Below, in pieces: positions 14,571 through 20,875 of a DNA stretch of 64,000 nt. Position numbers and translations under genes: made by a program. The DNA lies in contig OY764159.1 of the NCBI GenBank assembly GCA_963668175.1, positions 2,336,001-2,400,000 of the forward strand, read 5' to 3'. Under the pieces are notes generated by a model. That model was given only the letters and a program-made list of their open reading frames with translations. It was not told the DNA's origin and ran no database searches. Position 1 is the first letter of the stretch; every line of letters begins with the position of its first letter. The DNA is from Syntrophales bacterium (GTDB lineage Bacteria > Desulfobacterota > Syntrophia > Syntrophales > PHBD01).

Positions 14571-15836
14571 TTATCTTAGTGCCCGTTTAGCGTCATACTG
14601 CCTCTCGCCTTCGTCTATGGCTTTGAACATAACCGTGGCAGCCTTTCTTTCCTCCTGCGTTCCTTTCCCTCTGCCAAGACAGTAATCGCTGTAGAGTCTT
14701 CGTATGACCTGTTTTGAGGCATCAAACGCATTCTTGTCACCGATGAATTCGGCCACGACCATCTTTTGATAATAGTAAAGGAGATTTTCCCGGAGTCGTT
14801 CAAAATACTTGTCTTGCAACATGCCGCTTTCCGCCTGGATGAATGCGTCCATCGCCTCGCGCAGGCATGCAAGCCGCATCTCCCTATGCTGTTCAACGTC
14901 TTTGCCGAGGTCTTCGATCTTGCGATGGTATTGCGATTGCGTAATATGTAAAAGGCCTTTGAAATAATGGTAACTCGCCTTCTCGTCAGCCGGGGCCACT
15001 GTCAAAAATGTCGTGACAAAGTCTATTCCCAATGAGGCAGCAATAACGGCATCCTCATAGGTACGCTGCTTGGAGAAAAGGCGATGCCCCTCCAGTCCGG
15101 CTTGGGCCGCTATGCGGAATCTTCTGTCAACCGTCTCTTGCATCGCTGCGACGTATTTTTCTTTGACATCCAATCCCCTTGAGTCCCGCCACGATTCATT
15201 ATCCCTGTTATAAGTGCGGAATCCTTTCTCCTGGTTTGCATAAAGACAGGCCGGGCATATCTTTATGGAAAAGAGGGAATAGTCGATATAGGTCCGGTTG
15301 CCTGCGGCCTCCGTGTACTCAGTCATGTAAAAATCGTCCAGTTGAGACTGCGCCCCTCCATATTTCAGCCCCGGCGAGAAAAACACCGTCTTGTCAAATG
15401 GACATGAGAGTTGGTAATTAAAAAGGACCTCTGTAGAAGATTTTTCAATACCTCTGAATTCTGCAGGAAAAAGGGTGGGGGCAGGTTTCTGATCGGCGTC
15501 TGCGCTTAGCTTCGGCAGGGCTTTGTCAAGAATCGGGATAATGACATCCTCTATCGTGATCTGCCTGGTCTCTTGATAAGCGATAAACCTTGCCAAAAGC
15601 GAAGAGGGGATTTTGACGAGACGGGAAACAAAGTTTCCTGTCGGTTCCGCTGTCTTTGCAAAGAATCCGTCAGGGAACGACGTTTCCGTGATATTACCGG
15701 TTTGCGGTGTCAATCTCTCAAGCAGCGGAATGATAATTCCTTCAATGCTTAAGTGTTTCGATTGTTGAAACGCATCAAGCCGCGCAAACAGCTTCGAAGG
15801 AAATTTTATCGGTTGTTCAAAATAATCGACGCCCAT
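14571..15836 (-). CDS. Hypothetical protein: two tandem ribbon-helix-helix-like repeats plus DUF2225-like Zn-ribbon/helical domain
   Basis: Repeat at aa 8-45 and 72-109; LSCPFD...DDFY...IKICPACLYAN; visibly AT-richer than the flanks. Confidence 0.65.
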   Translation of the reverse strand: MGVDYFEQPIKFPSKLFARLDAFQQSKHLSIEGIIIPLLERLTPQTGNITETSFPDGFFAKTAEPTGNFVSRLVKIPSSLLARFIAYQETRQITIEDVIIPILDKALPKLSADADQKPAPTLFPAEFRGIEKSSTEVLFNYQLSCPFDKTVFFSPGLKYGGAQSQLDDFYMTEYTEAAGNRTYIDYSLFSIKICPACLYANQEKGFRTYNRDNESWRDSRGLDVKEKYVAAMQETVDRRFRIAAQAGLEGHRLFSKQRTYEDAVIAASLGIDFVTTFLTVAPADEKASYHYFKGLLHITQSQYHRKIEDLGKDVEQHREMRLACLREAMDAFIQAESGMLQDKYFERLRENLLYYYQKMVVAEFIGDKNAFDASKQVIRRLYSDYCLGRGKGTQEERKAATVMFKAIDEGERQYDAKRALR

Positions 15837-16628: not shown

Positions 16629-18296
16629 TCAGCGCACCTTCGTGAATTCATAGCGGCCGGCGGGGATTTCGATGCTCTGCCACACCATCTTGCTGCCGCT
16701 GATGGTGATTTTATAGGGCGAACGCTCTCCGTAATCCGTTCCCGCGAGTCCGCTTATCGAGAGGGTGTTCCCGGAAATCTTGTACTTGAAATTGAGTTTC
16801 ATGCTGTCCCTTTCCGCGAACCCGCCCGTCGTCCATACACCCGCGCCCCCGCTGAACGTCCATTGGTTCATCAGCGTCGCCGTGCCCATCTTCCAGACGC
16901 CGTCCACGCCGGTTACCGTGGCAGGCGCCGCTTCAACCGGTTTGGGGGTTGCGGGTTTCTTTTCCGCCTGGGCGATCTTCCTGTTGGGTACGGTTGCTTC
17001 CGTCTCCGCGTACAGCAGATCCGGCATTGCGGAGGAAGCTGTTACCTGAAGCTTCAGTTTGCAGGACGCATCCTTCGGCTCTATTTTCCACTCCCCGCCT
17101 TTCAGATTTCCCTTGGCGGGAAGGTTCCCCGCGGGTTGAACGGCGCTGTCGGCGCCGGCCAGGCTGCACCCGGAGACGGTAAGCTTCATTTTCACATTCT
17201 CGAACGCGGCGTTCGCACGGTTGGAAATATTCCCCGCCACATGGATGCCGTCCTCCTTCTCCTGCGTCACGATTTTCGGTTTCATGGCGGAGAAGGAGGC
17301 CCGCCACATCGTGTAAACGGCGCGGATGGCGTGATTCATGATGGGTTGCGGGTTATCGAAAAAATAGAGCAGCCTGGAGCGCGTCAGTGTGGCCGCCGCG
17401 ACGGCCAGGTGCGATGTCTCCTCCGCCTGGACGTCGACGGGTTTGTCGAAATCGCTGCGCCCGTTCTTCCAGGACGTTTCGTATCCGCTTAAGGTGTAGG
17501 GTCCGGGGTTGACGACGGTTTCCCAGGCGATGTGGCTTGACGTCTGGGTGACGAGCGGGGTCGTGCCGTTATAGTACCAGGGATCGAACCAGTCCTCCCC
17601 CCGCTCCAGGTAGCGGTCGATGTCGCTTCGGAAATTATGGCTGAGGGATTTGACGGGCGAGAGATAACTCATCTTGTCCGATCCCTTGATATCGTCGGTG
17701 ATGTAAACGGCGCCCTCGGACGTCGTTCCCTTATGTTTGGCGAGCTGGTCCTTGAGCAGCTTCTGGGCCGATGTCTTGTACATGCCCACGACGTGCATCG
17801 GGCAGTGCATATCGGCGAGAAAGTGGGCGCTCCAGGCGGCCGCCTGCGGAACAGGGGCCCTCTTGCCTTTGAGCATCCCTTCCGACAGGTAGCGGAAGTA
17901 CTTGCCGACGGCCATGGGGCCGTTGCCCTCCGTGGTGACGGGGTTGTAATAGTGCCAGGAAAACGGCGAATTTCCCTTGCTGTCCGGCCCAGGGCCTTCA
18001 AGGAGCGTGACGTCCGGCATCACGCCGTAGCCCGAGCCCGTATAATCGGCGCCGGCCCAGTTGACGCCCTCGTGGGCGAGGATTTCCTCCAGCTTGGGAA
18101 ACAAGTTCGGATCGAACGCCGCATCCGCCGTCAGAAGGCGGTATGCCTCCTTCAGGATATGCTGGTGTGTCTGTGCGGGAGAAAGAACGCCCCAGGATAA
18201 AGCACTGGGGGGTGCGCCGATGAAGGCCGATAACAGAATGACGACAATTGCGGAAACCAGATAGGGTTTTGTTCGTGTTCCCCGGCGGCTGCTCAT
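16629..18296 (-). CDS. Secreted Zn-dependent phospholipase C / P1-nuclease-fold protein with C-terminal beta-rich domains
   Basis: Signal ending ALS then W-x8-H; GPD; WHYYNP; HFLADMHCPMH; HIAWE. Confidence 0.72.
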   Translation of the reverse strand: MSSRRGTRTKPYLVSAIVVILLSAFIGAPPSALSWGVLSPAQTHQHILKEAYRLLTADAAFDPNLFPKLEEILAHEGVNWAGADYTGSGYGVMPDVTLLEGPGPDSKGNSPFSWHYYNPVTTEGNGPMAVGKYFRYLSEGMLKGKRAPVPQAAAWSAHFLADMHCPMHVVGMYKTSAQKLLKDQLAKHKGTTSEGAVYITDDIKGSDKMSYLSPVKSLSHNFRSDIDRYLERGEDWFDPWYYNGTTPLVTQTSSHIAWETVVNPGPYTLSGYETSWKNGRSDFDKPVDVQAEETSHLAVAAATLTRSRLLYFFDNPQPIMNHAIRAVYTMWRASFSAMKPKIVTQEKEDGIHVAGNISNRANAAFENVKMKLTVSGCSLAGADSAVQPAGNLPAKGNLKGGEWKIEPKDASCKLKLQVTASSAMPDLLYAETEATVPNRKIAQAEKKPATPKPVEAAPATVTGVDGVWKMGTATLMNQWTFSGGAGVWTTGGFAERDSMKLNFKYKISGNTLSISGLAGTDYGERSPYKITISGSKMVWQSIEIPAGRYEFTKVR

Positions 18297-18553
18297 ATCA
18301 TACCTCCTGTTGTGGATGTGATTGGTAACAGATAAAATCGTTTTCGGCAACATGAATCGGCGGCATCCGGACGATTGTCACGATTCTCCCCTGCTGTGAG
18401 GGGACGGAATGTCGTGACGGCGATCCCCTGTTATTTTGAGACATCTCGGGATGATCGGCGTCATCGTCCCTATTTCCGGAGAGCATGTATTGACAAAATC
18501 GGTCAAATCTGATTAAGAGCGTTTCACCGTAAAGGTTCCATACCTTTTAGAGT

Positions 18554-18601
18554 GGGCGATGGAGTTCGCCGTAACCGCCTTCGATGCTGATAACTCCTAC
18601 C
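18554..18601 (+). ncRNA. Fluoride riboswitch (crcB motif)
   Basis: GGCGATGGAGTTCGCC-gtAACCGC...GCTGATAACTCCTAC fits the known consensus. P1 is GGCGA/TCGCC; pseudoknot is GGAGT/ACTCC. TTGACA upstream at 18490. Confidence 0.92.
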
Positions 18602-18625
18602 AAATTCACGATAAGGAGTTATCGC

Positions 18626-19828
18626 ATGGAAGCCATCTATCTCGTGGCGGCGTTCTGGTTTCTCGCCGCCGTCCTTTCGACCGTCCTGGCCAACCGCCTG
18701 AAAATCTCGATCGCCCTGATGGAAATCATGGTCGGCTCCGTCATCGGCTGCGCTGCCTTCCGGCTCGGCTTTCTCGACAAACTCGCCCTGAACGCCGACT
18801 GGATGAAGTTCTGCACGGGTCTCGGCGCCATGCTGCTCACCTTTCTTGCGGGCGCGGAGCTGAACCCCGACGTCATGAAAGCCAAGATCAGGGAGGTGTC
18901 CGCAATCGGGCTGATCGGATTCTTCGCGCCGTTCATCGGCTGCTTTCTCGTTTCGTTCTACCTCGTCGGCTGGGGGATGGAGGCGAGTCTCCTGTGCGGC
19001 ATTGCGCTCTCCACCACGTCCATGGCCGTCGTCTACGCGGTCATGCTCGAATACGGATTCAACAAGACCGATTTCGGCAAAGGGATTCTGGGCGCCTGTT
19101 TTGTGAACGACCTGGGAACCGTCATCGCCCTGGGCCTCATCTTCGCCCCGTTCACGTATAGGTCCGTCGTCTTCATTGCCGCGACGGTCCTGATGATTTT
19201 TCTCCTGCAGCCAATGACGGCCTTCGTCATCCGCCGCTTCGCCCACAAGACCGCCGCCATCCGCGCGAAGTGGGTCATCTTCGTCCTGATGTCGGCGGGC
19301 GTGCTGGCCCTGTGGTCCGGCAGCGAACCGGTGCTGCCGGCCTACGTATTCGGAATGGTCCTGGCAAGAACGATGGAAGAAGACGGCCATTTCGTCCGGA
19401 GGCTCCGGACCTTGACCGTGGGCTTTCTGACCCCGCTCTATTTTCTCAGGGCGGGCGCGCTGGTGTCCATTCCCGCTTTGGCCGCTTCGCCCGTCGTCTT
19501 TCTTCTGCTCTTCGGCGGGAAAGTCGCATCGAAGATATGCGGACTCTATCCGGCCATCCGTAATTTCCGGGACGACAAGAAGGAGAAATGGTATTACACG
19601 CTGCTCATGTCCACCGGGCTCACGTTCGGAACCATATCCGCGCTGTACGGTTTGACGAACCGCATCATCACGCAGGAGCAGTATTCCTTTGTCGTCGGGG
19701 CGGTCATCGCCAGCGCCGTGATTCCGACCCTCATCGCCAACAGATTTTTCCTTCCCGGCCATCTGCTGCAACAGCCGGTTCTGGACGATCAGGCGCCCGA
19801 CGAAAAGGATATCGTGAACAGATTGTAA
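18626..19828 (+). CDS. Cation:proton antiporter (CPA2 / Na_H_Exchanger family)
   Basis: About 12 TM segments; LTFLAGAE, GIALSTTSMAVV, FVNDL, PLYFLRAG; SD AAGGAG. Confidence 0.92.
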   Translation: MEAIYLVAAFWFLAAVLSTVLANRLKISIALMEIMVGSVIGCAAFRLGFLDKLALNADWMKFCTGLGAMLLTFLAGAELNPDVMKAKIREVSAIGLIGFFAPFIGCFLVSFYLVGWGMEASLLCGIALSTTSMAVVYAVMLEYGFNKTDFGKGILGACFVNDLGTVIALGLIFAPFTYRSVVFIAATVLMIFLLQPMTAFVIRRFAHKTAAIRAKWVIFVLMSAGVLALWSGSEPVLPAYVFGMVLARTMEEDGHFVRRLRTLTVGFLTPLYFLRAGALVSIPALAASPVVFLLLFGGKVASKICGLYPAIRNFRDDKKEKWYYTLLMSTGLTFGTISALYGLTNRIITQEQYSFVVGAVIASAVIPTLIANRFFLPGHLLQQPVLDDQAPDEKDIVNRL

Positions 19829-20062
19829 TATGGCATTTGATCGACGCGGTTCATGACGTTCGCGCCCCATCGGCCTTTCAGGTCAAAACGGCGCATGCTC
19901 ATGAAACTTATCCTGCGCCCGAACTTATGAAGCAATCGGCGGATGTGTCGAAACGTAATGAAAGGTGTCTGAAACAGTCTTTTCTCTACGGGAATGACGC
20001 CGTGCGGCGGCCTTTCGGGGGCGGGTGCGCGAAATACCGTCGCACCGGAAGCGCTTGGTGCG

Positions 20063-20875
20063 CTATGCTTCGTCGATCCGCGCGTGCGCCGCTTCGTCCT
20101 TCTGGTAGCGCATCTGCTCCTCCATGACCATCTGCGCGAGCTTCTTCTGTATCTCGATGAACTCTCCCGATACGATGTCGCGGGGGCGGGGCAGGTCGAT
20201 CGTCACGACCTCCTTGATCGTGCCGGGGCGGAACGTCATGACGGCGATCCGGTCGGCAAGGTAGATCGACTCCTCGATGCTGTGGGTGACGAAGACGATG
20301 GTCTTCCTGAATTCCATCCAGATGCGGAGCAGCTCTTCCTGGAGGGCGCGGCGGGTGAGGGCGTCGAGGGCGCCGAACGGCTCGTCCATGAGGAGGATCG
20401 GCGAGTCGAGGGCCAGGGCCCTGGCGATGGCGACGCGCTGACGCATGCCGCCGGAGAGGTCTTTCGGGAAGCGGTCGCCGAATTCCGTGAGCTGCAGCTT
20501 GGCGAGGAGGGCCGCTACTTTGTCGCGGATCTCGTTCTTCGGGACTTTCTTGATTTCCAGGCCGAAGGAGATGTTGGCAGCCACCGTCATCCACGGGAAG
20601 AGGGCGTACTCCTGGAAGACCATGGCCCGGTCGGGGCCCGGCACGGCAACCTCCGCGCCGTTGGCGATCACCCGGCCGCTCGTCGGCAGTGAAAAACCGG
20701 CGATGGCGTTGAGGAGCGTCGATTTGCCGCAGCCCGAGGGGCCGAGGAGGCAGACAAACTCGCCTTCCGAAATCGTGAGGTTGATGTCCCTGAGGGCGAC
20801 GACTTCATTCTCGCCTGCGCCGAAAATCTTGTTGACGCCTTCAATGCAAAGCTGGGTGCGGCAGGTTTCGTTCAT
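20063..20875 (-). CDS. NitT/TauT family ABC transporter ATP-binding protein
   Basis: GPSGCGKST, LSGGMRQR, LMDEPFGALD, FVTH. Confidence 0.95.
   Translation of the reverse strand: MNETCRTQLCIEGVNKIFGAGENEVVALRDINLTISEGEFVCLLGPSGCGKSTLLNAIAGFSLPTSGRVIANGAEVAVPGPDRAMVFQEYALFPWMTVAANISFGLEIKKVPKNEIRDKVAALLAKLQLTEFGDRFPKDLSGGMRQRVAIARALALDSPILLMDEPFGALDALTRRALQEELLRIWMEFRKTIVFVTHSIEESIYLADRIAVMTFRPGTIKEVVTIDLPRPRDIVSGEFIEIQKKLAQMVMEEQMRYQKDEAAHARIDEA

Follow-up and report, generated by a model that had tools for sequence, protein, structure and literature searches.

A fluoride riboswitch with an anti-Shine-Dalgarno helix before a NapA/KefC-like antiporter gene of a Syntrophales bacterium, and the clade of the encoded exchanger

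The window analysed here is a stretch of 64,000 nucleotides (64 kb) from a Syntrophales bacterium (contig OY764159.1, positions 2,336,001 to 2,400,000), and its subject of interest is a fluoride riboswitch followed by a single gene for a cation/proton antiporter, P0001. The riboswitch class (crcB motif, RF01734), its ON logic and its association with antiporters are already known and were in print in 2010–2012, going by the available portions of two articles (PMC2864571, PMC11139923). "K+ transport" genes were listed for the crcB motif by 2010 (PMC2864571), and the available part of a review ranks Na+/H+ antiporters second in frequency among the gene classes that follow fluoride riboswitches, with a role in pH homeostasis (PMC11139923). 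The same part of the review places one of the two exporters known for fluoride, namely Fluc (CrcB) or CLC-F, in >85% of representative bacterial genomes (GEBA), those without them tending to be reduced symbionts, and gives GNNLI/GMGLI, GREGT/V and GEVTP as signatures of CLC-F (PMC11139923). In the full-text literature searched, we found no study of the function of the riboswitch-linked antiporters, and the available portions of PMC5533749 and PMC9971707 yielded nothing on antiporters.

Among transporters of solved structure, the best match of P0001 in both sequence and fold is NapA of Thermus thermophilus, a CPA2 Na+/H+ antiporter (PDB 4bwz, 5bz2 and 5bz3), and a second close relative is the K+/H+ exchanger KefC of E. 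coli (PDB 8bxg, 9emb and 8by2). According to the available text of the KefC study, the essential ion-binding aspartate is D156 in KefC and D157 in NapA, ND or DD motifs belong to Na+/H+ exchangers and QD to K+/H+ exchangers, and a lysine without a charged partner points to electroneutral exchange (PMC11150392). Fluc and CLC-F share with P0001 the regulator and the presumed physiological purpose, but their folds and families are unrelated to it; the CLC-F signatures are inapplicable to P0001, which is not a CLC.

We read the locus, with a probability of about 65%, as a fluoride-ON translational riboswitch that controls a single cation/proton exchanger gene of a fluoride-dedicated clade, the exchanger serving the proton side of hydrogen fluoride (HF) stress.

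Aptamer, switching strand and ribosome-binding site

The features of the locus, all on the forward (+) strand, are the following:

18491–18496, +: TTGACA, a perfect but only possible −35 hexamer, about 50 nt 5' of the aptamer (sequence)
18546–18606, +: fluoride riboswitch aptamer (crcB motif, RF01734; cmscan, full model)
18555–18570, +: aptamer helix P1, GGCG...CGCC (cmscan structure line, sequence)
18561–18565, +: 5' pseudoknot strand GGAGU, in the P1 loop (sequence and cmscan alignment)
18584–18627, +: whole of the sequestering hairpin, with 14 pairs and a bulge of one base (minimum-free-energy (MFE) fold)
18589–18598, +: switching strand GAUAACUCCU (DNA GATAACTCCT; sequence, MFE fold, 19 related leaders)
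18614–18623, +: Shine-Dalgarno (SD) region AGGAGUUAUC (DNA AGGAGTTATC; sequence, MFE fold)
18626–19828, +: gene for the 400-residue NapA/KefC-like cation/proton antiporter P0001 (translation, PF00999, structure model)

The original prediction, made from the letters of the window, had placed a fluoride aptamer at 18554–18601, and the Infernal search with the Rfam fluoride (crcB) model that it proposed returned an enclosing match on the same strand, with 53.5 bits where the gathering score is 34 (E 5.1e-12; model positions 1–64 of 64; cmscan, repeated in the genome search). No other Rfam match in the whole window rises above threshold. In the aptamer, the second helix is short and includes two positions that cmscan marks as non-canonical. 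The RNAalifold consensus of 107 aptamers from the order consists of exactly the GGAGU/ACUCC pseudoknot helix.

The SD region is, as had been claimed, the exact reverse complement of the switching strand, whose centre is the 3' pseudoknot strand ACUCC (18593–18597). The MFE fold of 18546–18640 holds this 10-bp helix and, past the bulged U18588, four further pairs (18584–18587/18624–18627), which take in the first two bases of the start codon (A and U), so that the predicted extension of the pairing into the start codon was also recovered. The energy of this fold is −33.4 kcal/mol, compared with −20.95 ± 3.1 kcal/mol in 200 shuffles (z −4.0), none of which equalled it; the hairpin 18584–18632 folded alone has −16.8 kcal/mol, and the mean unpaired probability of the SD motif AGGAGU in the free ensemble is 0.02. 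Since the pseudoknot of the aptamer and the helix that sequesters the SD share the same bases, the two pairings are mutually exclusive, and because the anti-SD helix excludes the pseudoknot, the element is most naturally read as a translational ON switch, in agreement with the first description. Without fluoride, the aptamer 3' strand would pair with the SD and, past the bulge, with the start codon, and ribosome loading would be blocked; with fluoride bound, ACUCC would be held in the pseudoknot with GGAGU, and the ribosome-binding site would be freed. The ligand response itself is expected from the known behaviour of the family, and that the element is, as first described, a real fluoride riboswitch with an anti-SD platform we regard as near certain.

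In the 19 leaders of P0001-like genes that were compared over the 14-pair helix, standard pairs fill 88.5% of the helix cells, against 35–54% when the partners are shifted by one to three columns, and all ten core pairs are present, each in 17–19 leaders. One compensatory pair was seen (58/93, with AU in 8, GC in 8 and GU in 3 leaders); most of the helix is not free to vary because both strands are constrained, one by the aptamer and the other by the SD. Two leaders, those of genomes G013 and G062, are misfits, and the former carries a stem and then a U-run between aptamer and gene. Among the 68 leaders from across phyla described below, 17 showed a T-run and 15 a short anti-SD duplex, in a crude sorting that serves only to show that platforms vary. 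Though such other platforms within the clade could suggest that the helix is incidental and control transcriptional, or even that the element is non-functional, the locus in the window has no terminator-like site (none was found in 18200–20100) and only 19 nt from the end of the aptamer to the start codon, and its exact 10-bp helix is conserved in relatives with a compensatory pair, which makes this explanation highly improbable.

The riboswitch thus shows no essential difference from the translational ON type of its class: it has the full-length model match, both pseudoknot strands, the ON logic in which the aptamer 3' strand competes with the expression platform, and a position in the 5' leader of a gene from a class that had been listed for this riboswitch before (PMC2864571, PMC11139923, in the portions available). 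The locus shows the translational fluoride riboswitch in clean, textbook form before a long-linked gene class. Fluoride riboswitches that sequester the SD have also been described in other settings, for example before eriC-F of Pseudomonas syringae. The TTGACA has no matching −10 on the + strand, the promoter scan of the riboswitch region having found no acceptable −10 or sigma-70-type promoter there, and for this reason a promoter is not established.

The antiporter and its fluoride-linked clade

The gene begins with the ATG at 18626–18628, 7 nt 3' of the SD and in frame with an open reading frame (ORF) of 18584–19828. The ORF start at 18584 was rejected because it lies inside the aptamer, while the ATG at 18626 has an SD and fits the N-termini of relatives; a 448-residue antisense ORF (18524–19870) without a Pfam family was taken to be a frame open by chance in DNA rich in G+C. 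The gene is monocistronic, being followed by a convergent ABC transporter operon and preceded by a divergent ORF that matches no Pfam family.

P0001 belongs to PF00999 (Na_H_Exchanger; E 1.5e-30, 106.8 bits vs 26.2, residues 13–369 on profile positions 2–367 of 375), and no second Pfam family, including KTN/RCK, PF02537 and PF00654, was matched in its 400 residues. The KefB and KefC equivalog models, whose cut-offs are 804 and 752 bits, gave 39 and 31.6 bits. In the sequence search of the PDB, NapA came first (E 4.8e-11 for P0001 alone, 1.3e-18 for the clade profile), and the clade profile also matched KefC, at E 6.3e-12. The AlphaFold2 model of P0001, built with 27 relatives (predicted local distance difference test score 85, predicted template modelling (TM) score 0.84), displays the NhaA-type fold with two broken, crossing helices, the breaks lying at 129–132 and 329–332. 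Foldseek against the PDB returned TM scores of 0.71–0.79 for NapA and 0.73 for KefC, and the top fold matches listed are all cation/proton exchangers, namely NapA, PaNhaP, KefC, SLC9C1, NHA2 and MjNhaP1.

Our clade alignment holds 27 sequences, 19 of them P0001-like and 8 like a paralogue encoded in the same genome. Invariant in all 27 are E33, E78, T130, T131, S132, K152, D162, K299, K303 and M328-x-T-G-L-T-F-G335. D162 aligns with the ion-binding aspartate of NapA (D157) and KefC (D156), and in the profile alignment the clade's "fvnD" lies on "viDD" of NapA and "lfqD" of KefC, and K303 on K307 of KefC. Residue 161 is Asn in 24 sequences and Thr in three, so that the DD motif of electrogenic CPA2 proteins is absent, whereas their lysine is present as K303, with K299 in addition. 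P0001 is similar to NapA in length, in the lack of added domains and in the conserved D157-equivalent, but it differs from it by ND instead of DD, by two invariant lysines on transmembrane helix 10 (TM10), by the second crossover ("STGLTFG" vs "GMAPRGEVG" in NapA) and by an identity of 21%. To our knowledge, NapA has no link to a riboswitch.

The tie of this clade to fluoride was followed in the window's order with a sample of 151 genomes that was identical in every order-level search. RF01734 matched in 75 of them, in 71 above the cut-off, with 111 matches above the cut-off in total. P0001 gave 28 matches at E<=1e-40 in 27 genomes, and a comparison of the coordinate tables placed every one of the 28 directly 3' of an RF01734 match on the same strand.

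Across phyla, a search of one-genome-per-species contigs with the clade alignment pattern gave at least 600 stretches, 599 of which were confirmed by tblastn, and the best 80 were analysed. These are 49–83% identical to the query and come from about ten phyla, their sources including Syntrophaceae/Smithella, Bacteroidota, Spirochaetia, KSB1, Nitrospira, Planctomycetota, Omnitrophota, Actinomycetota, Acidobacteriota, Chlamydiae and others. A riboswitch model (R1) was built from 107 of 108 order aptamers, a 91-nt one being left out; it works mostly as a sequence profile because the RNAalifold consensus had only six pairs. With R1, 68 of the best 80 loci have a riboswitch 5' of the clade gene on the same strand, in 64 of the 68 within 140 nt of the match start; 11 have none upstream, two of these with less than 230 nt of upstream DNA. 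A recheck of 18 loci with Rfam confirmed the riboswitches rechecked and added one sub-threshold match (L158, 30.6 bits). The survey that the original prediction had suggested thus reveals a clade that is dedicated to the fluoride regulon and almost always riboswitch-linked. A near-exclusive tie between an ND clade and the riboswitch was not found in the literature searched; Baker 2012 and its supplement, which lay outside the search, may bear on it.

Possible roles of the exchanger under fluoride

In the favoured reading, P0001 would work on the proton or cation side of HF stress and not move F− itself. Its cation site is kept, with D162, the T130-T131-S132 crossover and K303, an Asn standing for the first Asp of the DD motif. 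P0001 might expel the proton left by each entering HF, or it might act in the manner of Kef proteins and let protons in for K+ or Na+, shrinking the pH gradient by which F− is trapped. If the reasoning of the KefC study is followed, the ND motif predicts electroneutral Na+ or K+/H+ exchange for P0001, and its clade looks like one of electroneutral cation/proton exchangers. In 14 of the best 80 loci a crcB gene lies beside the clade gene, on the same strand and within 1.2 kb (12 downstream, 2 upstream), an arrangement that speaks for complementary roles and not for redundancy. Together with the fold and the retention of the cation site, this frequent adjacency favours a proton-handling exchanger over F− export. 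Of the two functions first proposed for the protein, relief of HF acidification therefore fits better than export of F−, the Asp, Thr/Ser and TM10 Lys being invariant in the clade.

Several results weigh against this reading. The first concern the protein. The NCBIfam CPA2 model (TIGR00932) gives P0001 94.1 bits, below its cut-off of 238.3, for which reason we label it CPA2-like (NapA/KefC-like) and not a certified CPA2; of the initial assignment to CPA2, the Pfam family has held, while the NCBIfam score and the motif, ND in place of DD, speak against it. The site is unlike that of every solved relative, being neither DD nor QD. K299 and K303 (codons 19520–19534) are invariant and one helical turn apart on TM10, where the aligned sequences of NapA and KefC have a single lysine and no counterpart of K299, so that, together with ND, the site is formally more positive than in known cation exchangers. 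The ion specificity, direction and stoichiometry of the clade are all properties that we infer.

Further difficulties come from the known exporters. The genome is a single contig of 4,567,304 bases (C1), rated 100% complete by markers, and it bears three RF01734 matches, the one in the window and two more, but neither known fluoride exporter. PF02537 had no match in the complete genome, and tblastn with 13 CrcB proteins found nothing below E 0.1 (best E 0.16). The only CLC, at C1:2055761–2056798, is a canonical protein of 585 residues with GSGIP, GREGP, GVFSP and a long C-terminal tail (CBS), and a CLC-F profile of four riboswitch-linked, signature-bearing proteins found no match in the genome at E<=1e-10. 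The statement that no Fluc or CLC gene lies in the window is hence correct, the sole CLC being outside it. This complete genome of 4.57 Mb, free-living-sized and with three fluoride sensors and zero known exporters, contrasts with the review figure cited at the outset.

The order as a whole is also poor in exporters. CrcB occurs in 6 of the 151 genomes and CLC-F-like proteins in 25, plus one fragment, when these are taken as full-length matches of at least 268 bits in frames of about 450–610 residues (other CLC matches reached at most 142 bits). Only 28 genomes have either, though 71 bear a riboswitch above the cut-off, which is at odds with the >85% in the available part of the review (PMC11139923); such a scarcity in this order was not found in the literature searched. 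Both exporters are missing in 22 of the 27 clade-bearing genomes. Across phyla, exporters were surveyed in the genomes of 50 of the best 80 loci, with the window's order left out and repeated families thinned; CrcB was present in 15 and a CLC-F-like protein in 4, 16 genomes having at least one, and 34 of these mostly metagenome-assembled genomes (MAGs), of unstated completeness, had neither. In a second order, the Nitrospira-type order of G162 with 101 genomes, the clade was found in 14, CrcB in 43 and CLC-F-like proteins in 20 (3 partial), and 11 of the 14 clade carriers lack an exporter. There, exporters are rarer with the clade (3/14 vs 52/87; Fisher p 0.009, kinship uncorrected), as substitution would predict, though, related genomes not being independent, the comparison has the value of a hint rather than of a test. 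With most carriers lacking both exporters, a majority that we did not find described in the literature searched, a pure helper role leaves the exit of F− unexplained.

One form of the favoured reading, a Kef-like valve in which fluoride sets off an efflux of K+ (or Na+) coupled to the entry of H+, so that the cytoplasm is acidified, the pH gradient collapses and weak-acid trapping of F− is lessened, would account for how exporter-less genomes cope. HF permeation and the pH difference drive accumulation, and fluoride-adapted yeast tolerate a lower internal pH, according to the available part of the review (PMC11139923). The profile match to KefC, the alignment of K303 with K307 and of "nD" with "qD", and the KefB/KefC-type names that source databases give to relatives of P0001 point the same way; a single acid in the X-D motif together with the lysine aligned to K307 is the combination read as electroneutral in the KefC study (PMC11150392, in the text available). 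KefC, however, is gated by a ligand-binding domain and P0001 is regulated by RNA: the latter has a single Pfam family and no C-terminal RCK/KTN domain or glutathione gating, and its motif is ND, assigned to Na+/H+ exchangers, and not QD (PMC11150392). At the crcB-adjacent loci, moreover, proton extrusion is at least equally plausible. We therefore hold the valve to be a tentative sub-case, with perhaps one chance among several.

Less probable still is that the clade forms a third family of fluoride exporters beside Fluc and CLC-F, moving F−, or F− with or against H+, through the NhaA-type fold. The exporter-less complete genome, with riboswitch control of two of its three PF00999 genes, would suit such a role, as would the low share of clade-bearing genomes with a known exporter (5/27 in the window's order, 16/50 across phyla, 3/14 in the second order), the tendency to exclusion in the second order, and a site with one acid fewer (N161) and one invariant lysine more (K299) than NapA. 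The cation-binding D162 is invariant, though, the leading matches in sequence and in fold are all cation/proton exchangers, and crcB beside the gene argues against redundancy. There is also no anticorrelation in the window's order, where an exporter is present in 5 of 27 clade-bearing and 23 of 124 other genomes (Fisher p 1.0), and 34 of its 71 riboswitch-bearing genomes have neither exporter nor clade, so that the absence of exporters does not single out P0001; the surveyed genomes are, besides, mostly MAGs. Direct F− export by P0001 is therefore unlikely. If it were true, the clade would stand in for Fluc and CLC-F in many free-living, riboswitch-bearing bacteria without exporters; at stake is whether fluoride resistance is achieved by proton management only or by a third exporter family.

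Other genes of the fluoride regulon

The two further riboswitches of the genome and the first gene of the GTPase unit are:

C1:3402229–3402289, −: second riboswitch, before a 398-residue antiporter paralogue that is 43% identical to P0001
C1:3405331–3405421, −: third riboswitch, before a 562-residue dynamin-family GTPase, then enolase
C1:3403621–3405309 (L005:7621–9309), −: the dynamin-family GTPase (Dynamin_N, 562 residues), first gene behind the third riboswitch

The paralogue unit (C1:3399743–3402289, −; L005:3743–6289) encodes the antiporter, then a universal stress protein (PF00582) and a 313-residue prenyltransferase-like protein, and the antiporter–Usp cassette also occurs in relatives and across phyla. 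In the window, two minus-strand ORFs upstream of the riboswitch, 16629–18353 (574 residues) and 14571–15836 (421 residues), have no Pfam match at E<=0.001.

Same-strand neighbours within 1.2 kb of the clade gene in the best 80 loci are, besides crcB:

16 of 80: universal stress protein
10 of 80: enolase
6 of 80: dynamin-family GTPase

For the order, DNA was available for 108 of the 111 riboswitches, three being too near a contig end; the first downstream ORF was picked by script and sorted by BLASTP against the proteins of this genome. The first genes after the riboswitch were:

56 of 111: dynamin-family GTPase, the commonest in the order
19: P0001-like antiporter
9: paralogue-like antiporter
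1: enolase
20: other
6: no DNA or no ORF

A link of the fluoride riboswitch to dynamin was not found in the full-text literature searched. By Pfam, the other cargo comprises MutS-like (3), NADH-dehydrogenase-like (2) and HEAT-repeat (2) proteins, one CrcB, an H+-pyrophosphatase and further families, with no CLC among these first genes. At L086:1906–3608, a 230-residue protein without a Pfam family is followed by a GGGtGRT protein (PF14057), and HIT-domain proteins, DUF1232 proteins and a DUF6062 protein with an MFS transporter are among the cargo at L010:1885–2379, L055:1944–2402 and L035:176–3116.

Two of the best 80 loci carry two same-strand riboswitches before one antiporter: in L151 (678–738 and 1051–1111) no known gene lies between them, and they may be tandem, while in L136 (142–214 and 1068–1143) the first heads crcB. 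One genome of the Nitrospira-type order has a second antiporter copy with one in-frame TAG (G285:C18:19584–20711, −). Finally, fluoride "islands" were seen in the window's order, with four riboswitches in a span of about 11 kb in G124 (L076, C7:207500–222043) and three within about 7 kb each in G045 (L033, C3:600060–610500) and G055 (L040, C95), where each riboswitch heads its own unit, be it GTPase, MutS-like, HEAT-repeat or antiporter.

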